Source of the DNA: a virus
Virus record (IMG/VR): IMGVR_UViG_3300009151_000041
Location: 39,144-103,143 of that record
DNA length: 64,000 nucleotides
Direction: 5' to 3' (one strand)
The first letter of the stretch is position 1. Each line of letters opens with the position of its first letter. The notes below the pieces were generated by a model. The model saw nothing but the letters and a program-made list of their open reading frames with translations. It did not search any database and was not told where the DNA came from. This document shows, in pieces, positions 34,649-48,884 of this stretch. The position numbers and the translations under genes are program-made.

Positions 34649-35281
34649 CTACCGGCTGAACAAGTCATGCACAAAATCTTGCAGGAGTTGATTGTGACGA
34701 CCTTGATGCCAATGTGGCTTTAGATAGTTTTTGTCATACCAGAACTGTTGGCTTTCTGGATGACATCCAATTAGCCCAATTCTATCTTGTATGATGGCCA
34801 TGGCATCACCATTGGCATATCTAGCCACAGTGTCAAACCCTGTACCTACCAAAGCACATCCATCGTAAAAGTACATGCGATCAGCTTGACCATTCCAAGT
34901 GACAGCACAGGCTTTGGCATGTGGCCGTCGTGTGTCAGTGTGAGGTTGTCGAATGTATTGTACTGCTCGCACATTATTCAAAATGTTAAAGTAATTGCGA
35001 TCGGCCCAATATGCACCCATACAGATGCCAAGATATCTACCACCACGATTGATAAACGTGCGTATGCGTGGTGCATTTTCTTTCAGCATCCAGTCGTATG
35101 TGTCTGCATCGCCCATGCCGCCAGGAAATGCCACACAATCAACATCATCAAAGAAATTGTCTTCCAATTGATGTCGTGTAAAAATTTTAAATCTATAGTA
35201 AGGAGTTAGTGATTGTATTATGCCATTGCCACTTTGTACTGAACATCTGGGCTGATGTAAGAACAGCGCAATTGTTTTCAT
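34649..35281 (-). CDS. BPL-N/class I glutamine amidotransferase-like protein
   Basis: FPGG, YLGICMGAY, GCHPE. Confidence 0.75.
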   Translation of the reverse strand: MKTIALFLHQPRCSVQSGNGIIQSLTPYYRFKIFTRHQLEDNFFDDVDCVAFPGGMGDADTYDWMLKENAPRIRTFINRGGRYLGICMGAYWADRNYFNILNNVRAVQYIRQPHTDTRRPHAKACAVTWNGQADRMYFYDGCALVGTGFDTVARYANGDAMAIIQDRIGLIGCHPESQQFWYDKNYLKPHWHQGRHNQLLQDFVHDLFSR

Positions 35282-35422
35282 TTAGTCTGACTGGTTAATT
35301 GGAGGAGGCGCATGTTCTTTGGCTTTTTGTTTGGCTTTTTCTGTAGCTGGGCTTGTTCTATGCGGAGCAGCGGGGCGGGGTGTTGAGGGATATCGGGGAG
35401 GTTTGTGTTTGAACCAACTCAT
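35282..35422 (-). CDS. small basic peptide
   Basis: MSWFKHKPPR...; abuts next gene. Confidence 0.4.
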   Translation of the reverse strand: MSWFKHKPPRYPSTPRPAAPHRTSPATEKAKQKAKEHAPPPINQSD

Positions 35423-35454
35423 AGGCTGTGTCCTTTTGAAGTATTTACCAGTGT

Positions 35455-35685
35455 TTATTTTTTGTTGTAGTTCCAGACCAGTCTGCGTTGTTCTTTGCGC
35501 ACCCAATGGATACAATCTTCTTTAAGTGACAAGTTTTTAATTTTATCACAATGGTTAATACTTATGGTGGCTTGAGCCATGCACATGGCATTTTGCTCGG
35601 GATCTTTAATCTTGGTGCAATCATTTAGGTTCACAGCCCATGACTGCATGGGCGCAAACACAAGTATAAACAGGGTGGGCCACAT
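35455..35685 (-). CDS. small secreted Cys-repeat protein
   Basis: Signal peptide; two C-x-KIK repeats; TAAATA 4 nt upstream. Confidence 0.55.
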   Translation of the reverse strand: MWPTLFILVFAPMQSWAVNLNDCTKIKDPEQNAMCMAQATISINHCDKIKNLSLKEDCIHWVRKEQRRLVWNYNKK

Positions 35686-35700
35686 GCCTTATTTACGGCC

Positions 35701-35775
35701 AAAATAATAGGACTATGTAGTCCTATTATGCTGGTTACGAGTTCCAGCGCCACTCAATCGTTGTGGTCGGTTATA
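35701..35775 (-). ncRNA. candidate small RNA (two hairpins plus terminator)
   Basis: TAAGTA at 35777-82; CCAC/GUGG and GCUGG/CCAGC hairpins; 11-bp terminator stem with U tail. Confidence 0.4.
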
Positions 35776-35792
35776 TTACTTATATTTGAGAA

Positions 35793-35810
35793 ATTACAAT
35801 TTTATTACAC
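35793..35810 (-). promoter_or_regulatory. Pho-box-like direct repeat
   Basis: GTGTAAT-AAAA-TTGTAAT, 11-bp period. Confidence 0.45.
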
Positions 35811-36800
35811 CAGATTGTCTCGAAATATCTCCCAGGCCAGTTGCCAACTCCATCGCTGACTGCCTTGCCACACAGTTTCTCTATCCAGTCCCATGCATTT
35901 GTATGTGGCAGTGGCTAGATTTTGATCCATAACACCTGTAACTCCCGGATCAATCACATCTAGTGGTCCTGGTGCAGGATACGCTGCCACTGGCGTTCCG
36001 CAGGCCATGGCTTCAATCATGACCAGACCAAATGTTTCCCATCTAGATGGAAACACAAACACATCTGCTTGTGCATAGTATTCGGCCAGTGCTGCACCAG
36101 TTTTAAATCCCACAAACTCCACGTCAGGATATTTCTGTTGCAGTTCTTTTCTGTAGGGACCATCACCTACCATGATTTTTCTAGCACCAGGATATTGCAT
36201 GGCACAAAAGTCATCAAGGTTCTTTTCTTTTGAAACTCTGCTCACGCATACCAGTATGGGACGATCATTTTCTGCAGGATCACGCCAGTCAGGCTTGAAC
36301 ACTTGTCGGTCAACACCGCGTGTCCAACTGATCACAGTGCCGTCAAAGCCTTGATCTCTTAACTCGTTGACCATGGTGTCTGTTGTGGTCAGCACTTTGC
36401 CCGAATGTTTGTGGAACCAACGCACGTAGGCCCAGGTAATAAACTCTGGCACACCCACAAGTTTTTTTATGCCTTCAGGAAAGCGAGTATGATAAGCGGT
36501 ATTATACCGTATACCGTCACGCTCAAGCAGGTGTCTAGCAGACACACCGAGAGGACCCTCTGTGGCGATATGGTAATGAGTCGCACCCACCTCCGCAATC
36601 TTCTGGCGTAGCGCCCGGGGATAGGCAATCTTGACTTCGTTGTAGCCAGGACAATCACGGTGGGGGAACTGCCCGGGATCAATATAAACAAGCTGATACC
36701 CATCCAAAAGCGCATGTGCCTCCAAATTCTTGTAGGTCGTAACCACACCATTAATTTGATCCGGCAAGTTGTCTGTTACTATCAGTATCTTCTTTGTCAT
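35805..36800 (-). CDS. GT4 glycosyltransferase, Agt-like diacylglycerol glycosyltransferase
   Basis: QINGVVTT, HIATEGPLG, YHTRFPE, RGVD, RVSKEKN, ETFGLVMIEAMACG. Confidence 0.8.
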   Translation of the reverse strand: MTKKILIVTDNLPDQINGVVTTYKNLEAHALLDGYQLVYIDPGQFPHRDCPGYNEVKIAYPRALRQKIAEVGATHYHIATEGPLGVSARHLLERDGIRYNTAYHTRFPEGIKKLVGVPEFITWAYVRWFHKHSGKVLTTTDTMVNELRDQGFDGTVISWTRGVDRQVFKPDWRDPAENDRPILVCVSRVSKEKNLDDFCAMQYPGARKIMVGDGPYRKELQQKYPDVEFVGFKTGAALAEYYAQADVFVFPSRWETFGLVMIEAMACGTPVAAYPAPGPLDVIDPGVTGVMDQNLATATYKCMGLDRETVWQGSQRWSWQLAWEIFRDNLV

Positions 36801-37545
36801 TTCGTTGTGTCCATGTTACAATTTCCCATGCACCTGAATGATGTTCTACCAATGCTGTGCATGATTCAACCCAGTCGCCATCATTCATGTAAACAACGCC
36901 GCCAATGTCTTTGATTTCTGCGTGATGGATGTGGCCGCATATCACCCCATCAAATCCACGCTTGCGGCAGTAGTCAGTGAGATTGCGTTCAAATTGAAAT
37001 ATAAAGTCTACAGCCTTTTTAACGCGATGCTTAAGATACAGGCTAATACTCCAGTACCCAAAACCCAGGCGGTGACGTATCCAATTAAACTTAGTATTGA
37101 GAAATAGTATGAAATCATATGCTTTATCTCCTAAAAAACTCAGCCAAGGTGCCAGTCGAGTGATACCGTCAAATAGATCGCCATGGGTCACAAGGTAGTG
37201 CTTTCCATCCGCACCCACATGTTCACATTGATTGCGAACTTCCACATGCCCAAATGTGATACCATCAGGTATCATTGGGCGTAAAAATTCATCGTGATTG
37301 CCGGCCACATACACCACTCGTGTGCCGCGTTTGGCGTGGCCTAAGATCCTGCGAACCACATTGGTGTGGCTTTGTTTCCATCGCAGTCGGTTTTGTTGAA
37401 CCTTCCAGCCGTCAATAATATCGCCAACTAGATAAAGAGATTCGCAGGTGTTGTGCTTGAGAAAGTTGTTAAGACGATCTGCCTGGCACTCTTTGGTACC
37501 AAGGTGAACATCGGAGATAAAGATGCTGCGATATGTTTTCTCCAT
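36751..37545 (-). CDS. PlcP/LpxH2-like metallophosphoesterase (putative phospholipase C)
   Basis: FISDVHLG, LVGDIIDGW, GNHDE, HGDLFD, CGHIH, NDGDWVES. Confidence 0.82.
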   Translation of the reverse strand: MEKTYRSIFISDVHLGTKECQADRLNNFLKHNTCESLYLVGDIIDGWKVQQNRLRWKQSHTNVVRRILGHAKRGTRVVYVAGNHDEFLRPMIPDGITFGHVEVRNQCEHVGADGKHYLVTHGDLFDGITRLAPWLSFLGDKAYDFILFLNTKFNWIRHRLGFGYWSISLYLKHRVKKAVDFIFQFERNLTDYCRKRGFDGVICGHIHHAEIKDIGGVVYMNDGDWVESCTALVEHHSGAWEIVTWTQRNDKEDTDSNRQLAGSN

Positions 37546-37566
37546 AAAGTATTTACGGAGAAATGC

Positions 37567-37584
37567 ATTACAATTTTGTTACAT
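37567..37584 (-). promoter_or_regulatory. Pho-box-like direct repeat
   Basis: ATGTAAC-AAAA-TTGTAAT, upstream of the plcP-like gene. Confidence 0.5.
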
Positions 37585-37869
37585 TGCCAGCATGCGAATC
37601 AACGCAATGGAGTCAATAGTCGTGAGCAGAACATAGTTAGCCAGCATCCCAAAACTTCTGCGAGTCCAAGCAGCCCAGGCATAGATAGCGCAACCAGTAA
37701 TCCAAACAGGGTAAAGGGCCAGAAGGGGTGGTGTTGGTACAGTGGAGGCCATTGTAATACTGCAACCAATGCTGATAGCCCAAGCCAATACTTCCATGAC
37801 AAACCTAAAAGGGTGGGTCTTGTAATCACTTTTGATCCAATCAAAGATGCCGGTTAAAATATCATTCAT
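37579..37869 (-). CDS. small membrane protein
   Basis: Three TM segments; ATGA coupling to uvsE. Confidence 0.6.
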   Translation of the reverse strand: MNDILTGIFDWIKSDYKTHPFRFVMEVLAWAISIGCSITMASTVPTPPLLALYPVWITGCAIYAWAAWTRRSFGMLANYVLLTTIDSIALIRMLAM

Positions 37870-38897
37870 CGAGAATACAGCCATTGCTGGTACAATTGAT
37901 CTCGGCTCAAGTTCTTGCCTTTGGCCTCGCATTGAATGTCCCACTGATCTGCAAATGTCAGTGCCCAGTCATTCACAGCACGGTTCCAATAAAAGTCACT
38001 GTGTGCTCGAAGTTTTTGCTTTTTGTAACCTTGTGCCAACAGTGCGCTCAAGTCGGGTTTTACATTGGATACGTGATCGACAAGGCAGTCTTCACGAGAT
38101 ACTGAGTAATGAAGAACAGGACGCACACCGCGCCAAGAGTCAAGCACCCGTTGCGCACGTGAGTCCGTGGGGGTAATGTATTCCCCGGTGTTGATCCAAT
38201 GATGGTGGATATCCAAAGTGAGAGCCACATGATCAGCCACGGCCAAAGTAACATCCAGTCCATTTGAGAGTTCGTCATTTTCTATTGCTATTAAGTTTCT
38301 TGCTTCTGTACTTAGCCTGCTCAAAGTTCGCAAAAACTTAGCAGGGCCGCCTTTGCCCGAGAGATGCACATTGATCTTAAACCCATGATCGTGCCAGTCA
38401 GTGCCGTAACCCATCCACCGGGCCATATCAGCGTGATACTCAAATTCAAGTATGGACCGCTCGACAATTTCATCCGATTCGCTTGCCAGCACACAAAATT
38501 GTCCTGGATGGAAGGAAAGCCGAACACCCAGACGCCGAGCAGTGTCACCAACCGGCGCAAATATGCGTTCGCAATGATCTTGAATTTCACGTCGTTGCCA
38601 CCATGCAATCCAGGAGGGTTCGGTGTAGCCTTGTAACATTTCACTGCCCAGTCGCACCATTCTGCGCTCGGGTTCCATAGCACCCACACGCTCGACCAGT
38701 TTGAGGGCCGCGGCAGCATTATGGTTCATGATGTCCCACTGACGCTGGTCAGCTTCGTCCTTGTGCTCTCGAAGCCAGCGCATGGTAGTTGATCTTCCGT
38801 TTATATCACGGTCCACAGCATTGACTTTCATACCCCCGCATTCCTCAGGGTCATTGAGCCATTTGCAACAAAATCCAAAACGTGAGTGTGTAGTCAT
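37866..38897 (-). CDS. uvsE: UV damage endonuclease
   Basis: RLSFHPGQF, INVH, IENDE, LDIHHHW, HYS, AHSD, EAKGK; leaderless promoter at 38904-38932. Confidence 0.9.
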   Translation of the reverse strand: MTTHSRFGFCCKWLNDPEECGGMKVNAVDRDINGRSTTMRWLREHKDEADQRQWDIMNHNAAAALKLVERVGAMEPERRMVRLGSEMLQGYTEPSWIAWWQRREIQDHCERIFAPVGDTARRLGVRLSFHPGQFCVLASESDEIVERSILEFEYHADMARWMGYGTDWHDHGFKINVHLSGKGGPAKFLRTLSRLSTEARNLIAIENDELSNGLDVTLAVADHVALTLDIHHHWINTGEYITPTDSRAQRVLDSWRGVRPVLHYSVSREDCLVDHVSNVKPDLSALLAQGYKKQKLRAHSDFYWNRAVNDWALTFADQWDIQCEAKGKNLSRDQLYQQWLYSR

Positions 38898-39848: not shown

Positions 39849-40763
39849 TTAAGTAGTTCTAACCAAATCTAACGTAACACAATGAAAGCCGCCTCCTAGA
39901 GTGCGGCTTTGTCTTAACCGCAAAGGAATTACTTCAAATTGATAACTCTTTAGAGTTTTGATCAATTCAGTTTGGGCGGCGTCACAAATCACTGTGTGTG
40001 GATCTACTACCAACATGTTCATGGCAATCCATTTTGATGCATATGGATACTGATAAAAATCCTGTGCCACAACATCATGCACCCAAATTTTATGCCATCC
40101 ATCAAACACTTGAGGTACAGTATCAACCCCAACTCTATGTCCGTTTAGTATGACCAAACCTTCGCGTAGCGGCACAATGGTTGAATCAATATGTACACCA
40201 GCATAAAAATTGCACAGTTCTATTGTGACATCCGGAAATTGCTCACACAACCAATCATACGCTTTTCGATTGCCCGAAGATGATTCCAAATACAGCATCT
40301 TGTCGCCCAGTCTGCACACATTGGCAGCATCCAGTGTCATACCTTCGTTTCGTGGCATGAACAGGTAATGGTCAGCAGAATCCACAATGTGATGATAGCA
40401 CTGCAATTCCATGTCTCTACAAGGATACATCATGGCAGGATCAACTATAGTAGATCCATACACAAGAAACCTGTCGCGTGGACAATAGTTATACATGCCA
40501 TCGTGTGTTTGGAAGTTCAGTGGATCTGGACGTACTACTTCTACACCTAGACTTGTCAGTGTGGTTGCTAATGCGTCCAAATCTTCATTAGCTTCATCAA
40601 TAATGCGCTGTGGTACAGGTCCGCGTGGAACCGGTGTTTCTGTCCATGTAGTCTTTTCACTTTCTCGAGAAAACACAGGATCATTCACAGGCCAGTTTGC
40701 ATCAGTGGCACTACCTACCACAATTTTTCTTAGTGGGCTCCACTCATCAACTGTGGATATCAT
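39849..40763 (-). CDS. amidinotransferase (glycine/inosamine-phosphate amidinotransferase family)
   Basis: DEWSPL, YCPRD, DAAN, HIDST, MNML, GGGFHCVTLD. Confidence 0.88.
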   Translation of the reverse strand: MISTVDEWSPLRKIVVGSATDANWPVNDPVFSRESEKTTWTETPVPRGPVPQRIIDEANEDLDALATTLTSLGVEVVRPDPLNFQTHDGMYNYCPRDRFLVYGSTIVDPAMMYPCRDMELQCYHHIVDSADHYLFMPRNEGMTLDAANVCRLGDKMLYLESSSGNRKAYDWLCEQFPDVTIELCNFYAGVHIDSTIVPLREGLVILNGHRVGVDTVPQVFDGWHKIWVHDVVAQDFYQYPYASKWIAMNMLVVDPHTVICDAAQTELIKTLKSYQFEVIPLRLRQSRTLGGGFHCVTLDLVRTT

Positions 40764-41278
40764 ACGTGTCCAGTAATTTGTAAAGAATATCGGTCTTCAA
40801 GTCCGATGTTGGCTGCCATGTGTGGCAGATCATATACCCATTCAACTGTGTCGCCTGCCTTCCATGCAACATAGGGCCTACCATCTACTTCAAGATAGTG
40901 TCCTGGTTTCCAATCTTCCAACAACAGCAGAGCTCGACAAATTGAAGTTTCTTTTCCTTGAAGACCAAATACTTCTACGTAGCGTTTATATAGATCCTGA
41001 TGCACCGGCATCACAGTGTCTGTGCTCATGCGATAAAATGCCAGGCCAATGTCTTGCCATCCGCGAGCTTGATACATTTCAATGAACTTGTTGGTCCAAG
41101 TAGGCAAGCGATGACGCATGTCACAAAGATCGCCACAAATTTTACTTGTGTAACCTTGACTGGTCCATAACGCTACATTGGCTGGATCATTAAATGGTTC
41201 CTGGATGTAGTCCAGTTGTTTGAACTCGTCGTCCCAGAACTTTTTGATATTGTATTCACGCACTGCGGGTATTGCCAT
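40760..41278 (-). CDS. Fe(II)/2OG-type cupin oxygenase-like protein
   Basis: MPVHQD...PHMAANIG..DRYSLQITG (HxD...H). Confidence 0.7.
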   Translation of the reverse strand: MAIPAVREYNIKKFWDDEFKQLDYIQEPFNDPANVALWTSQGYTSKICGDLCDMRHRLPTWTNKFIEMYQARGWQDIGLAFYRMSTDTVMPVHQDLYKRYVEVFGLQGKETSICRALLLLEDWKPGHYLEVDGRPYVAWKAGDTVEWVYDLPHMAANIGLEDRYSLQITGHV

Positions 41279-42500
41279 AGTGTATGACCTCAACATCCTT
41301 GGTAGATTCAAGTTTACGCCATGGGTCAACAATCACACTACTGCGTAAAATGTCACAGTATGGTTTGGTATCTGCTTGATCACCGGTATACTCATAAGTG
41401 ATTTTACGATTGTGCGCCCACAGAAATACTGCGGGATAATCTACACCATCAACTACGTCAGTTGGATCATCGGCCAACGGGTCAACATATTTTAATGCAG
41501 TATGACCATGTTTGGTCACATAGTGTCCTACCAGAGTTGAGTAGCTGCCAATACAGTATTCCACATCGGGCTTGTAGGCCTTGCCATGGATCACAATGGG
41601 CAAATTGCCATTGTCTTCACTGACTTTGATCAGGTACCTGGCAAGATTTTCTGCTTGAATTTCTCTAGCATGCATTACAGTATCAAATAAGTCATAACCA
41701 ATGTTATACTCTTGAGCCAACCAACGCAGAGCAATGTTGTCGCGTGGGTGGCAAGCACCTGCATCGCCCATACCAGCAGTCATGTACTTGGGTCCCATGA
41801 TGCGCATGGTTGATCTGGCCAAGGCATTTGTGACCACATCCACATTGATGTTTCCAATCCGTAATGCAAAGTCCTGAATCATGTTCACCAAACCAACTTT
41901 TGCAGAGATAAATGTATTGTAGAAGATTTTGATTGCTTCGCATTCGTCCCATGTGCCTACTTCATAGCGTGGATCATTTTGCATGATAGTCTTGTACAAA
42001 TCAATCAGTTCACCAGCAACACCTGTGAGTGATCCATCCTCTGTGCCAATGATAACCATTTCGGGATTGGCCATGTCCCACTTTACTGAGCCCATGGCAA
42101 TCAAGTAAGGATTGTAGCAAAACTGATGCTTGGTGTCAATCAACGGTACAAATTTATTGCGAGTGGTGCCAGGCAACACTGTGGATATTAACACAATTTT
42201 TTTGCTGTCATTTGCATATCGGTTTACATTTTTGATAGCATCAATCACAGCATCATGCCCAAAATCTCGTGGTTCCATGTGACTGGATGGTACAGATCCA
42301 TCATATCCTTCTGCATGTGGAGTTGGCACTGCAATAAAGATCCATTCACTTTCATTCACAAGCTCTTCAATTCCACATACTTTTACTGAGTCACTTGTTC
42401 GAGGGTAAATATCATATCCCCAGACTTGATGTTTCTCTGCCATTACTTCGGCGCAATCCAAACCAAGTTTACCAATTCCTATAAAACCAATTTTTGCCAT
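41256..42500 (-). CDS. UDP-glucose/GDP-mannose dehydrogenase family protein
   Basis: GIGKLG, IAVPTP, STVLPGT, K.FYN, GACHPRD, GKAYKPD. Confidence 0.88.
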   Translation of the reverse strand: MAKIGFIGIGKLGLDCAEVMAEKHQVWGYDIYPRTSDSVKVCGIEELVNESEWIFIAVPTPHAEGYDGSVPSSHMEPRDFGHDAVIDAIKNVNRYANDSKKIVLISTVLPGTTRNKFVPLIDTKHQFCYNPYLIAMGSVKWDMANPEMVIIGTEDGSLTGVAGELIDLYKTIMQNDPRYEVGTWDECEAIKIFYNTFISAKVGLVNMIQDFALRIGNINVDVVTNALARSTMRIMGPKYMTAGMGDAGACHPRDNIALRWLAQEYNIGYDLFDTVMHAREIQAENLARYLIKVSEDNGNLPIVIHGKAYKPDVEYCIGSYSTLVGHYVTKHGHTALKYVDPLADDPTDVVDGVDYPAVFLWAHNRKITYEYTGDQADTKPYCDILRSSVIVDPWRKLESTKDVEVIHYGNTRSA

Positions 42501-43677
42501 GAGCGTTCCTTTAGATAGATTATACAATTTTTTGCAAGACATTTGCAATCAGGATATTTTAATTTATCGCTTTTTGCCACACGGGTCAAGAAAAATAGAA
42601 GACTGTCTGCCATTGGCAGAACCAAACTACAAGTACTTAGAAGAAAACCCAAAAGTGCAAATGATCTGCCATGATCAGGAAACACTAGATTACAAATCTT
42701 ATGAGGTACCATTGGAGTTGCACTCTAAAATTAACAATATTCCATATCCTGTGTTCAATAAAGTTTCTAAACATGGCGCTATGAACTACTATGACCAGAT
42801 TTTATTACTGCATTCGGAAATGCGTAGTAAAGACCTTGAATGGTTTGAAAACAACGGCTCAACAGGAGTCTATTGGTGGAGTCATGCAATCATAGCTAGA
42901 GATTGGTATAGATATGCTGAAATTGACCCACTACTCTATAAAGAAAAAAATCCAAAAGTTGATTTTTTAATTTACAATCGTGCCTGGTCTGGATTAAGAG
43001 AATATCGTTTAAAATTTACAGAGTTAGTCTTGAATCAAAGTTTACAAAGTTTTTGTCAGTTGAACTTCAACCCTTATGACAACAATGCCCACTACAAAGA
43101 GCATAAGTTTGTTAACTCTGCCTTTGCCCTCACGAGAGATGATCTTTGTGAATATTTTGATCCAACCACAGTTGACGCTGCTGCCAGCGCAGACTATTCA
43201 AATTTAGACTACCAAAACTGTGCTATTGAAGTTGTTTTAGAAACTGTATTTGATGATACCAAGTGGCATCTAACAGAAAAAACATTGCGCCCATTGGCGT
43301 GTGGCGTTCCTTTTATTTTGGCCAGCACTCCTGGAAGTTTACAGTATTTGCAAAGCTATGGTTTTAAAACATTTCATAATTACTTTGACGAAAGCTATGA
43401 TTTAATTCACGATCCTGTGCAACGACTTGAGTGCATTGTGCATCTAATGAAACAACTGTCTTCTTTGCCACAAAATCAAAAACAGCAGTTGTATTCTAAT
43501 CTACAGTCCATATGTGATTTTAACAGACAGAGATTTTTTAGCAAAAGTTTTTACACACAAGTGGTTGAAGAATTTGTCACTAACTTTAGCCAGGCATTCC
43601 AATTAATCATACAAACCGATTCACATCAATACTTTGATCGGTTTAAACGACTGCAAACATTCTTCAATACCGTGTGA
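42499..43677 (+). CDS. putative glycosyltransferase-like protein (TEK motif)
   Basis: VVLET...HLTEKTLRPL..GVPFI...GFKTF...DESYD. Confidence 0.55.
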   Translation: MSVPLDRLYNFLQDICNQDILIYRFLPHGSRKIEDCLPLAEPNYKYLEENPKVQMICHDQETLDYKSYEVPLELHSKINNIPYPVFNKVSKHGAMNYYDQILLLHSEMRSKDLEWFENNGSTGVYWWSHAIIARDWYRYAEIDPLLYKEKNPKVDFLIYNRAWSGLREYRLKFTELVLNQSLQSFCQLNFNPYDNNAHYKEHKFVNSAFALTRDDLCEYFDPTTVDAAASADYSNLDYQNCAIEVVLETVFDDTKWHLTEKTLRPLACGVPFILASTPGSLQYLQSYGFKTFHNYFDESYDLIHDPVQRLECIVHLMKQLSSLPQNQKQQLYSNLQSICDFNRQRFFSKSFYTQVVEEFVTNFSQAFQLIIQTDSHQYFDRFKRLQTFFNTV

Positions 43678-46232: not shown

Positions 46233-47430
46233 TGGGTGCCTTTAATTCTATAGGAATATTTACCAGGCCATCGGTTATTTTTACCTGGTCTATTCCTTGT
46301 TCTTTGTAACGTGCCAGGTTAAACATGTGTGGCAGTAGCACACGTTCCAGTTCACTGTGCAGGCCACGAGCTCCTGTTTTGTTTTTTAATGTGTTCTTGG
46401 CCACTTGCTCTAGAGCTGTTTTATCAAATTCTAATGCAACTTGATCTTGCACAAACAACCATTTGTATTGATCTACATAACTGTGTTTGATTTCTGTTAG
46501 AATAGATATCAAATCTTTTAGAGCAAGTTCGTTTAACGCAACCCAACTTGGAAAACGTCCCACAAACTCTGGAATCATGCCAAATTTAACCAGGTCGTCA
46601 GGAGTTACTTGATCAAGGTCGCCGGCACGATCTGATGACACTTCGGCTTGGAATCCAATTGATGTGCCACGAATACGACTCTTCACAATATTGTCCAGGC
46701 CCACAAAGGCGCCGCCAGCAATAAACAAAATGTTAGTGGTATCAATTTCCACAGTTTCGCCGTTGGGATGTTTGCGACCTCCTGTGGGTGTGATTCTGCA
46801 TTTGGTGCCTTCTACTAACTTGAGCAAGGCCTGTTGCACCCCTTCGCCCGATACATCTCTTGTGATGCTTTGGCTTTCTGAACGTCGACTGATTTTGTCA
46901 ATCTCGTCTACAAACACAATACCACGTTGTGTTTTTTCGATGTCATTGCCCGAGGCAGTATACAGACGTGAAATTAAACTTTCAACGTCATCACCTACAT
47001 ATCCTGCTTCAGTCAGTGATGTAGCATCAGCAATCACAAACGGCACATCCAAGTATCTTGCTACTGATCGAGCCAACAATGTTTTGCCAGATCCTGTGGG
47101 ACCTAGCATGAGAATGTTGACTTTTTCAATTTCAGTGTTTTTGTCTTGATTGCCTATGCGTTTGTAGTGGTTGGCAATTGCCACGCTCAATACCATTTTG
47201 GCTTGACCTTGTCCTATAACATATTGATCAAGATGTTTTAAGATAGCTCTAGGATCAAGACTGATAGTCTGCGTTGTAGGAGTAAGTATATGTTCGTCTA
47301 CTAGAAGAGTTTGGCAAAGTTCCACACACTCGTTACAGATGGCAACATCTTCGCCCACTATTAACTTGACCACTGCATCTTTGTGCTTGCCACAAAAACT
47401 ACAATTATCTAAATTTTCGGTTTGTTTCAT
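46195..47430 (-). CDS. clpX: ATP-dependent Clp protease ATPase subunit ClpX
   Basis: CSFCGK zinc finger, GPTGSGKT, EAGYVG, DEIDK, RKHP, IGF loop, GARGL. Confidence 0.96.
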   Translation of the reverse strand: MKQTENLDNCSFCGKHKDAVVKLIVGEDVAICNECVELCQTLLVDEHILTPTTQTISLDPRAILKHLDQYVIGQGQAKMVLSVAIANHYKRIGNQDKNTEIEKVNILMLGPTGSGKTLLARSVARYLDVPFVIADATSLTEAGYVGDDVESLISRLYTASGNDIEKTQRGIVFVDEIDKISRRSESQSITRDVSGEGVQQALLKLVEGTKCRITPTGGRKHPNGETVEIDTTNILFIAGGAFVGLDNIVKSRIRGTSIGFQAEVSSDRAGDLDQVTPDDLVKFGMIPEFVGRFPSWVALNELALKDLISILTEIKHSYVDQYKWLFVQDQVALEFDKTALEQVAKNTLKNKTGARGLHSELERVLLPHMFNLARYKEQGIDQVKITDGLVNIPIELKAPNEQIARKISNSR

Positions 47431-48884
47431 GCGTTGGTATTGGTTGGTTTTAGACGTTCTGATACTTGTTCTCTCTCAATGTCACTCAACAAATCTGGAT
47501 CATATTCACCAGTGGCGATCTTGTCAATGAGGTGATCAATGTATGCTGTGTCGTAAGTATAGTTATCTGTAGAATTTTTGTCAATAATAATCCACTCGTC
47601 TCCGTTGAATTTGTACAACTGTGGAGGCATGCGATCAGTTTTTACAAAGGTGTCACCTCGATTGGGTGCTGCCGGAAACTCTCTACCAAAACTGGTTTGA
47701 GTGTACTTGGGATCAGTCCAGGGCAATTGATCAATTTGCCCTCGGGTCAATTTAACTCTTTGTGCTTTGATAGTTTCATCAGGATGTTCCATTTTCCAAC
47801 GGCGCATGGCTTCTTTGTCGGTTTCATCAGCTGAATCGAGTGCATCAATTTCTTCCTCAGTCCAAGCACGGAGTTCTATGCCCGGTATTTCTTCCGGAGG
47901 CTGAATACCCATTGCGGCCTCATCTTCTCGGACGGGATCTGGTGCTACCATGGGCTTGAGATTTTGAAAGTGATCAAATGGCCGGGCAAGATAAGGATAG
48001 CGTTCGTTCCATGGACGATTGTCTTCAGGTGGCTCAGAACTGGCTTGAATCTGTTCAATTTGGTCATCAGTAACGGGTCCGTCGTCAGGTTCATACTGGG
48101 GCTCATCATGCACAAACCCACCTGTACCTTGTCGTGCCCATTCAAACTGTTTGTTTGCCGCTAGAATAAGTGTAAGCGCCAAGGGATCAAACACCAACAC
48201 AATCATTATGATCATCCAACGCACTGCACGTTCCAATAGATTGGCATCAGGATTGTCTCCGTACAGCAAGGCCGCAATGTATTTTATTGGTCCAACCTCT
48301 GCCTCCACTTTTCGGACCTCGGCGGCAATAGGCGCACGTTCATCGTTAAGTCCCGCGATAGACTTTTGCGACTGTGATATTTCTGATTGAAGGCGAGCAC
48401 GCTCTTTCTGCTGGGTTCTTCGCATAGCCACAGCTTTTTCGGCACCCGTTTCTGTTGTTGAGCGGCCCAATACTTGATCCACTCCCTCATCCATTTGTTT
48501 AAGCGCCTTACGGTTTGCTTCAATATTCTCTTTTTCGGTTTTGATCTTTTCATCATATATTGCAATCTTGCTAGTAACATCGCCTGACACCAGGCTTTGA
48601 TCTGAGTGTGCCTTTGACAAATAGCCAAATATACCCATGCTGGTCAGTATCATTAGGAATGCTATGGCCGGTATCAAATACAGTTTGAACACAATACCAG
48701 CACGGCGCCAGTTGTTGTGCAACCATACAGTGGCAACAATTTTGCCCAGTTCTAGCGAACCGCCCATGATGATCACAGGTATTGTGGCCGCTGAGAATAT
48801 AGCAGTAAGGCCTGCTACTGAGTACCAGGCTGCTACGCCGCTTAAGAGTAATGCGGTGGCGAGAATACCAAATCCAAATATCAT
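47427..48884 (-). CDS. membrane coiled-coil phage protein
   Basis: N-terminal TMs, GIFGYLSKAH, EVGPIKYIA, VFDPLA; TAAATA upstream. Confidence 0.65.
   Translation of the reverse strand: MIFGFGILATALLLSGVAAWYSVAGLTAIFSAATIPVIIMGGSLELGKIVATVWLHNNWRRAGIVFKLYLIPAIAFLMILTSMGIFGYLSKAHSDQSLVSGDVTSKIAIYDEKIKTEKENIEANRKALKQMDEGVDQVLGRSTTETGAEKAVAMRRTQQKERARLQSEISQSQKSIAGLNDERAPIAAEVRKVEAEVGPIKYIAALLYGDNPDANLLERAVRWMIIMIVLVFDPLALTLILAANKQFEWARQGTGGFVHDEPQYEPDDGPVTDDQIEQIQASSEPPEDNRPWNERYPYLARPFDHFQNLKPMVAPDPVREDEAAMGIQPPEEIPGIELRAWTEEEIDALDSADETDKEAMRRWKMEHPDETIKAQRVKLTRGQIDQLPWTDPKYTQTSFGREFPAAPNRGDTFVKTDRMPPQLYKFNGDEWIIIDKNSTDNYTYDTAYIDHLIDKIATGEYDPDLLSDIEREQVSERLKPTNTNA

Follow-up and report, generated by a model that had tools for sequence, protein, structure and literature searches.

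A phage-borne plcP-agt-like gene pair behind a Pho-box-like site: a predicted lipid-renovation operon of a large virus

The DNA considered here, referred to as the window, is the 64-kb stretch at the end of one 103,143-bp IMG/VR virus record (IMGVR_UViG_3300009151_000041), and the subject of the analysis is a pair of minus-strand genes that are predicted to exchange phospholipid for glycolipid in the host membrane. The upstream gene, at 36751-37545 (264 amino acids, aa), is a plcP-like gene whose product matches the Pfam family Metallophos and would be a phospholipase C. The downstream gene, at 35805-36800 (331 aa), is agt-like and codes for a putative diacylglycerol glycosyltransferase (GT) of family 4 (GT4), matching Glyco_transf_4 and Glycos_transf_1. 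The two open reading frames (ORFs) overlap, as had been noted in an earlier reading of the window made from its letters alone (hereafter the sequence-only reading), and the overlap is 50 nt long. In front of the pair, on the same strand, lies a Pho-box-like direct repeat, box 1 (37567-37583, TGTAACAAAATTGTAAT), in which the half-sites TGTAAC and TGTAAT are separated by AAAAT. It is followed after 11 nt by the −10-like hexamer TAAATA (37550-37555, minus strand), and another 4 nt separate the end of this hexamer from the plcP ATG. A second repeat, box 2 (35793-35809, TGTAATAAAATTGTAAT), has the half-site TGTAAT twice around the same AAAAT spacer and overlaps the stop codon of the GT gene. Behind it come, also on the minus strand, a deletion junction (35777-35792), a structured RNA element of 42 nt with two hairpins and a possible pseudoknot (35731-35772), and an intrinsic terminator hairpin, AATAGGACT-ACAT-AGTCCTATT, with a T-run (35701-35727), which closes the transcription unit of plcP-agt as well as the transcript from box 2.

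The phosphoesterase contains every one of the motifs that had been named for it as PlcP/LpxH2-type, namely SDVHLG, GDIIDGW, GNHDE, HGD, GHIH (here GHIHH) and GDWVES. The calcineurin-type metal-binding motifs (DxH, GD, GNH[D/E], H and GHxH) are intact, and the same residues are aligned in the homologues of Pseudomonas aeruginosa and Sinorhizobium meliloti. The S. meliloti protein is 50% identical to that of the window (E 2e-87); its gene adjoins those of a LuxR-type regulator and an acyl-homoserine lactone synthase and is, judging from the locus numbering, presumably at the SMc00171 locus. With an LpxH-like gene of P. aeruginosa the identity is 56% (E 5e-95). This gene has a family-1 glycosyltransferase gene directly 3′ of it, followed by an adenylate cyclase gene that we take to be cyaB. 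The comparator was taken to be PA3219 (PlcP), since its gene order is the same as that of PA3219 and PA3218 (Agt1), the former lying immediately 5′ of the latter (PMC8528852). Both comparators were drawn from mislabelled chromosomal records in PLSDB. As a yardstick for these values, the validated PA3219 PlcP is itself only 46-47% identical to the PlcPs of Phaeobacter and S. meliloti (PMC8528852). In a maximum-likelihood tree the viral phosphoesterases, sampled as 14 sequences of ca 78-98% identity in addition to the one of the window, form a single clade (support 93/98) that is nested among the bacterial PlcPs, while Escherichia coli LpxH is found on a branch of ca 10 substitutions per site.

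It is important to point out that database labels and virome surveys would have this protein as an LpxH-type enzyme of lipid A, in which case the GT would act on lipopolysaccharide (LPS). The source annotations read UDP-2,3-diacylglucosamine pyrophosphatase LpxH, and a virome study of Lake Baikal lists the gene as lpxH and files it under LPS biosynthesis. LpxH does belong to the same fold family of calcineurin-like metallophosphoesterases and has the same metal-binding motifs. However, the viral protein scores far below the cut-offs of the NCBIfam equivalogs for LpxH (39.4 bits against 134 for NF003743, and 29.1 bits against 190.35 for TIGR01854), the solved LpxH structures in the PDB match it weakly (E 4e-3), and the chromosome of E. 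coli K-12, searched in six frames, gave no match at E 1e-3. We also take E. coli LpxH to have GNRD at the place where the viral protein has GNHDE. The viral protein clusters instead with the PlcPs, to the validated members of which it is 50-56% identical, its partner has 40% identity with a diacylglycerol glucosyltransferase that has been validated, and the viral plcP always has a glycosyltransferase gene behind it (76 of 76 evaluable loci, see below). With these results an LpxH function is hardly credible. The grouping with PlcP and not LpxH that had been proposed thus agrees with the tree, the identities and the model scores, and the assignment of the ORF at 36751-37545 to a PlcP-clade metallophosphoesterase, and by prediction to a phospholipase C, is supported.

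Turning to the second protein, the GT4 motifs ascribed to it (QxNGVV, here QINGVV, HIATEGPLG, YHTRFPE and RGVD) can all be located in the ORF at 35805-36800. It is 40% identical to Agt1 of P. aeruginosa over 325 aa, which is the full length (E 4e-80), and Agt1 makes monoglucosyl-diacylglycerol (PMC8528852). Enzymes of the Agt clade are less than 25% identical to other GT4 enzymes, and the best matches among solved GT4 structures cover only the C-terminal domain (E about 1e-11). The residues found to be essential in the Agt of SAR11, that is, the Gly-rich motif, Gly82/Gly85, His104, Thr162-Arg163, Arg190/Lys195, TFG and Glu264, are kept. They are represented by the motifs QINGVV, ATEGPLG, YHTRFPE, WTRGVD, SRVSKEKN and ETFGLVMIE, which are conserved in 79 viral sequences. 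Both the full-length identity to Agt1 and the retained motifs agree with the placing of the protein in the Agt clade, and its identification as an Agt-like GT4, a predicted diacylglycerol glycosyltransferase, is supported.

The gene pair is widespread among viruses. At least 593 stretches in IMG/VR encode a relative of the phosphoesterase and 428 encode a relative of the GT. The best 80 of these phosphoesterase loci were used as a sample of plcP-centred loci, and the proteins in them are mostly 78-84% identical to that of the window. A GT4 gene lies 3′ of plcP in 46 of the 80 loci, with an overlap of ca 47 nt in 37 of the 46, while in 30 others its place directly behind plcP is taken by a gene for a GT2/GT21-like transferase of 237-238 aa. 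Four loci end too early to judge the downstream gene, and a glycosyltransferase gene thus stands directly 3′ of plcP in all 76 evaluable cases. The GT2/GT21-like partner suggests an alternative glycolipid product. Alternative pairings of this kind are also known for bacterial plcP, which is arranged with agt in 'type 2' and with other glycosyltransferase genes in 'type 3/5'. Other genes near plcP in the viral islands code for PstS, for SNase-like and non-specific secreted nucleases, for a fatty-acid desaturase, and for Mpo1-like and BPL_N-like proteins. A plcP homologue of 48% identity occurs in the pelagiphage Mosig, where it and pstS are arranged divergently, with TTAACA-N5-TTAACA between them. 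Our literature searches turned up no report of plcP or agt in a virus.

We now turn our attention to the DNA in front of plcP. An exact match to TGTAAYAAAATTGTAAT is found at two places of the window only, as TGTAACAAAATTGTAAT and as TGTAATAAAATTGTAAT. When up to 3 mismatches are allowed, the repeat is found 4 times in the window compared to 0.8 expected, and none of 100 shuffles reaches 4. A repeat of this kind, with up to 3 mismatches tolerated, that has TAARTA 9-12 nt behind it occurs in the whole 103-kb contig only at boxes 1 and 2. The 11-bp-period repeat of TGTAAY and TGTAAT, with TAA(A/G)TA 10-11 nt behind it, is therefore present at both places where the sequence-only reading had put it. 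That reading had also cautioned that the boxes overlap TAA stop codons in AT-rich DNA. The overlap is real, box 1 sharing sequence with the stop codon of a 117-aa ORF (37579-37932) and box 2 with that of the GT gene; the surrounding DNA, however, has a GC content of 43-47% around the plcP-agt locus and is not AT-rich. The concern about the stop codons is answered by the fact that box and hexamer are kept together before the phosphoesterase gene in many divergent contigs that differ in the genes lying further upstream. The box was also considered as a general phage promoter, an option that was rejected as there are only 2 sites in 103 kb.

In the relatives, the composite site before plcP has the form TGTAAY-N5-TGTAAY-N11-TAAATA, followed after 4-8 nt by the ATG. 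Related loci with a summed length of 1.24 Mb contain 68 unique composite sites, 67 of which are on the gene strand, with a spacing between box and TAAATA of 11 nt and only rarely 10. Of these sites, 36 precede plcP, 13 pstS and 4 a BPL_N-like gene, and one each is found before the gene of a secreted SNase-like nuclease and that of a second metallophosphoesterase. A second set, consisting of loci not centred on plcP, contains 55 composite sites, 25 of them before pstS and 14 before plcP. The pstS genes behind the boxes are assigned with good scores (386-403 bits, compared to the NCBIfam PstS equivalog cut-off of 339). Of 112 distinct upstream regions of plcP, 34 have the composite site, compared to 17 of 5014 control windows. 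The boxes are thus conserved in related phages, before plcP as well as before pstS.

The two direct repeats, the 11-bp period and the A/T-rich spacer correspond to the architecture of a Pho box, and the box stands in lieu of a −35 element. No TTGACA-like hexamer is present. In the phoA and pstS promoters, the Pho box is placed in front of the −10 at a distance of about 10 bp. From 64 of the viral sites a box consensus yTGTAAYAwwAyTGTAAYA is obtained, which differs from the published consensus of E. coli, CTGTCATNNNNCTGTCAT (PMC8528852), essentially at one position per half-site. Sites of E. coli PhoB determined by chromatin immunoprecipitation sequencing include TGTAATAAAAGCGTAAAC (phoE), TGTAACCCGTATGTAACA and TGTAATAGTTCTGTAACG. 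The viral TGTAAY half-sites and their period hence match sequences that are bound in vivo by E. coli PhoB. Box 1 together with TAAATA is accordingly supported as a candidate phosphate-starvation (Pho-box-type) promoter of plcP-agt, with PhoB as its presumed binder.

The observed gene families, operon structure and site conservation, and the sharing of the site with phage pstS, point to a phage-borne plcP-agt lipid-renovation operon behind a phosphate-starvation promoter. To this interpretation, in which the enzyme activities, the substrates, the role of PhoB and the use of the phosphorus are predictions, we assign a probability of roughly 0.78. The proposal of a lipid-remodelling module with Pho-box-like sites, made in the sequence-only reading, is thereby upheld by the PlcP and Agt clades, by the conserved boxes and by the sharing with pstS in the relatives. 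In the suggested mechanism, phosphorylated PhoB in a phosphate-starved host, or a factor of the same specificity, would bind the two TGTAAY half-sites, spaced by 11 bp, in the −35 position and recruit RNA polymerase to TAAATA. As the hexamer is situated 4 nt before the plcP ATG, the resulting mRNA is predicted to be leaderless or nearly leaderless, and the overlap of the agt frame with the end of plcP suggests translational coupling. PlcP would then remove the phospho-head group of membrane glycerophospholipids to yield diacylglycerol, which the Agt-like GT4 would glycosylate to a phosphorus-free glycolipid. The membrane would in this way stay intact until lysis, and the freed phosphorus could enter the synthesis of the very large phage genome. 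The virus thus probably draws phosphorus from the host membrane.

There are a number of points that weigh against this interpretation. The composite site in its strict form is found in only about 30-36% of the plcP upstream regions. Furthermore, at the position of the catalytic Asp of the GT (Asp256 in the SAR11 enzyme, in FPSxTDTFG) the window has a Glu (FPSRWETFG). The same is true for 78 of the 79 viral sequences, whereas P. aeruginosa and Sphingomonas have Asp. The D256E exchange costs the SAR11 enzyme more than 90% of its activity, and the viral enzymes may hence use another donor or acceptor, or work at a different rate. As to the promoter, 24 of the 145 genes of the contig have a TAAATA in the 60 nt in front of their start, among them those of the tail fibre and other large ORFs of the tail-fibre region, without any box, which indicates that the hexamer is a general, T4-late-like promoter element of the phage. 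It makes a poor −10 for sigma-70, since the final T is absent, and to our knowledge there is no case of PhoB activating a TAAATA-type promoter. The protein that binds the box could thus be encoded by the phage. The hexamer occurs genome-wide and is not special to plcP and agt.

The observations on TAAATA lead to a scenario in which the enzymes act as described above but the box is read by an activator or repressor of the phage, together with TAAATA-specific phage machinery, and serves as a timing signal without link to phosphate. Such a scenario would account for the promoter-like use of TAAATA throughout the genome, boxless at many genes, and for the near-invariant spacing of 11 nt, which implies that the box-binding protein touches the form of the polymerase that reads TAAATA; in the one metagenome-assembled genome (MAG) searched, moreover, the composite site is present only on phage-like DNA. 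We nevertheless consider it unlikely, because the identifiable targets of the box have mostly classic Pho-regulon functions (pstS, plcP, secreted nuclease, phosphoesterases), because half-sites and period match the in vivo sites of E. coli PhoB, and because the box is placed as is generally known for Pho boxes, some 10 bp in front of the −10; nor was a candidate phage regulator identified. It is to the same degree unlikely that the association with pstS merely reflects a shared expression class of the phage. Another option is that the pair alters the host envelope for reasons other than phosphorus supply, such as superinfection exclusion, receptor masking or a change in lysis or membrane. The literature discusses lipid remodelling in connection with phage attachment and susceptibility (PMC9938194, PMC9804370). 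The fatty-acid desaturase and Mpo1-like genes in related islands point to general lipid engineering, and the Asp-to-Glu exchange at the catalytic position of the GT, specific to the viral clade, can be read along the same lines. However, the promoter is one that is common to pstS, phosphorus-scavenging nucleases are among the neighbours, and the cassette is carried by phages of jumbo size (a record estimated to be 29% complete; homologues on contigs of 336-513 kb), the genomes of which are expected to demand much phosphorus. The sampled waters are, we believe, lakes, in which phosphorus is usually limiting. A purpose confined to the envelope therefore appears very unlikely, and the phosphate-starvation operon remains the preferred explanation.

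As separate observations on the hexamer, TAAATA occurs 51 times in the 103-kb contig compared to 89 expected. Copies in the window are found, for instance, at 35690-35695, upstream of 44043 and upstream of 47427-48884. The hexamer often stands only 4-7 nt before an ATG, a pattern suggestive of a general promoter of T4-late type and of many genes being leaderless.

The second box has a different history. The closest relatives are the loci L083 and L002/L082, in which the GT is 94% identical to that of the window. These have the same box 2, followed by pstS. The blastn alignment of L083 and L002 to the window is unbroken up to 35793 and starts again at 35782, and in between the relatives have a pstS gene of 1.04 kb that is absent in the window, where 10 unaligned nt (35783-35792) are followed by TAAGTA (35777-35782). 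This TAAGTA, which begins 10 nt after box 2 (35782-35777), aligns with the last codon and the stop (AAG TAA) of the pstS of the relatives. No pstS was found anywhere in the 103 kb of the record, which is incomplete. Since the nearest relatives carry pstS exactly at this place, box 2 is, by alignment, the orphaned promoter of pstS, a leftover that has become fused to the conserved RNA element and the terminator. This loss of pstS, with an orphan box joined to the RNA element, is particular to the window. The suggestion that two boxes control the module holds thus only in part: box 1 does precede plcP, but box 2 belongs to the lost pstS, and the TAAGTA taken as its −10 comes from the fused 3′ end of that gene. 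We have also considered the boxes as flanking repeats of a mobile cassette, but this was rejected, as box 2 is explained by the loss of pstS.

The RNA element was characterized by means of an alignment of 42 distinct copies and has the pattern AAyCGr, the P1 hairpin with the loop CAAnGAUwGAG, and then CUGG-AAYUCGUAA-CCAG. All 4 pairs of P1 covary, and P2 is invariant save for one compensatory change. A pairing of 3 bp between the 5′ tail and the loop of P2 is possible in 95% of the cells of the alignment and includes one covarying pair. The alternative of a kissing loop is weaker, with 84% of the cells paired and no compensatory change, so that the tail pairing is the likelier of two tentative models. 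The exact core of the element is present in 83 IMG/VR stretches, with one match each among the 80 listed, and an Rfam search over 35300-37700 with E up to 1 gave no match. A hairpin with a T-run stands behind the element in most copies. The element itself follows pstS, lying in its 3′ untranslated region, or a gene that ends in an outer-membrane-protein-like YRF, or the GT gene. In at least 8 contigs it is located directly behind the box promoter. The gene that comes after the element is plcP or the BPL_N-like one.

One can, on this basis, speculate that the phage holds a self-contained Pho regulon, whose promoters would be activated on the phage TAAATA by the response regulator of the host. 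These would include that of a box-driven structured RNA of ca 75 nt (35701-35772), acting as a small RNA or as a leader gated by a ligand or protein, which tunes the lipid and phosphate genes and which in the window would be a stand-alone unit through the loss of pstS. We regard this extended proposal as tentative and, taken as a whole, rather doubtful.

Some observations of a more peripheral kind were made on the RNA elements of related loci. Further copies of the element are found at L083:6056-6140 and L113:5038-5124, and in five other loci (L192, L218, L221, L249 and L261). In seven loci, the gene 5′ of the element ends in VGxQYRF followed by the stop, which we take to be the C-terminal signature of outer-membrane beta-barrels. 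These genes could code for phosphate porins (PhoE/OprP-like) of the phage. There is also another RNA-like element, CUCGCC-nGG-CUGGU-GGCG-UAmAAUrkGAyAAGUw-ACCAG, which has a terminator behind it and looks like an H-type pseudoknot. Its second stem covaries between loci (CTGGT/ACCAG, CTGAC/GTCAG, GCTAGC/GCTAGC and CCAAT/ATTGG). It was seen 3′ of the GT gene in eight loci (L087, L098, L126, L129, L144, L149, L150 and L159), in two of which (L149 and L150) its start is 6-8 nt behind box and TAAATA, and 5′ of plcP in two more (L033 and L070).

It is instructive to compare the locus with known systems. Bacterial plcP-agt operons under the control of PhoB are those of P. aeruginosa (PA3219-PA3218, PMC8528852), Burkholderia cenocepacia (BCAL2364-2365, PMC13691135), SAR11 HTCC7211 and Phaeobacter MED193 (PMC4796936), and S. 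meliloti (SMc00171). The viral operon resembles these in both enzyme families, in the gene order and the overlap of the frames, in the protein identities (50-56% for PlcP and 40% for Agt1), and in the direct-repeat box with its 11-bp period in the −35 position. It differs from them in being carried by phages, with a PlcP relative in at least 593 IMG/VR stretches, in the −10, which is the TAAATA of the phage and from which a leaderless plcP mRNA is predicted, in the half-site, which is TGTAAY where the bacterial one is TGTCAY, and in the Glu that replaces the catalytic Asp of Agt. Another related case is that of the T4-like cyanophages, in which pstS and phoA are reportedly induced through the PhoR/PhoB system of the host (work attributed to Zeng and Chisholm, 2012). 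Also there, phosphate-starvation genes of host type are found in a large phage with Pho-box-like sites, and the same box as the one described here drives pstS in the relatives of the window. The difference is that the present genes would release membrane phosphorus and make glycolipid, instead of taking up phosphate.

Should the predicted activities be real, phages in waters poor in phosphorus would dismantle the phospholipids of their host and rebuild the bilayer with glycolipid, which goes beyond the import of phosphate by PstS and would constitute a new class of viral auxiliary gene. The environmental signal of plcP and glycolipid, from which phosphorus stress of bacteria is read, could then be viral in part, and the entries 'lpxH / LPS biosynthesis' in the tables of auxiliary metabolic genes from viromes would be wrong. 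The conserved hybrid promoter, made up of a Pho box and a phage-type −10, would also offer a way to ask how a response regulator of the host drives phage transcription.

Concerning the virus itself, the completeness of the record is 29% as estimated by CheckV, which translates into a genome of ca 350 kb, and homologues in the protein database are situated on the contigs of 336-513 kb mentioned above. The record codes for tail-fibre proteins, an ATP-dependent DNA ligase and a class Ia ribonucleotide reductase, and beyond these the large proteins have few matches in PHROGs. A DNA search among 50,697 reference phages yielded no relative of the record at the nucleotide level, and matches were obtained only at the protein level, to Mosig, S-SRM01 and a few more. 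A contig scan with the phosphoesterase gave one locus, on a phage-like contig that had been assigned to a Haliscomenobacter MAG. This MAG holds two phage-like plcP contigs (C110 and C31, with 83% and 79% identity, respectively), and its own plcP is 41% identical to that of the window. The two contigs are either a weak hint to the host or an artefact of binning. Haliscomenobacter was not adopted as the host, as the composite box was found in the MAG on the phage-like contig only, and as the phage pstS has a strong Shine-Dalgarno sequence.

Finally, two other genes of the window should be mentioned. The minus-strand gene at 41256-42542 codes for a divergent nucleotide-sugar dehydrogenase, with the N-terminal and central domains of the UDP-glucose/GDP-mannose dehydrogenases in Pfam. 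It scores 130 bits for TIGR03026, compared to a cut-off of 189.8, has no match to the C-terminal domain, and finds UDP-glucose dehydrogenases as the best matches in the PDB (E 2e-15). The gene overlaps a co-oriented ORF of 178 aa, which in turn overlaps an ORF ending in GGGFHC that we read as amidinotransferase-like. On account of these overlaps and the common orientation, it looks like a part of another operon, and the three overlapping genes (39849-42542, minus strand) have the appearance of a separate sugar-modification operon. The idea that the dehydrogenase could supply UDP-glucuronic acid to the GT is not supported, as nothing ties it to the GT and it sits among other overlapping genes. 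The other gene, at 34649-35281 on the minus strand, codes for a protein of 210 aa that is BPL_N-like or class-I glutamine-amidotransferase-like (Pfam BPL_N) and for which no solved relative was found by sequence. It is present in 19 of the 80 phosphoesterase loci, and in three loci (L010, L112 and L162) it lies 3′ of the box and the RNA element.

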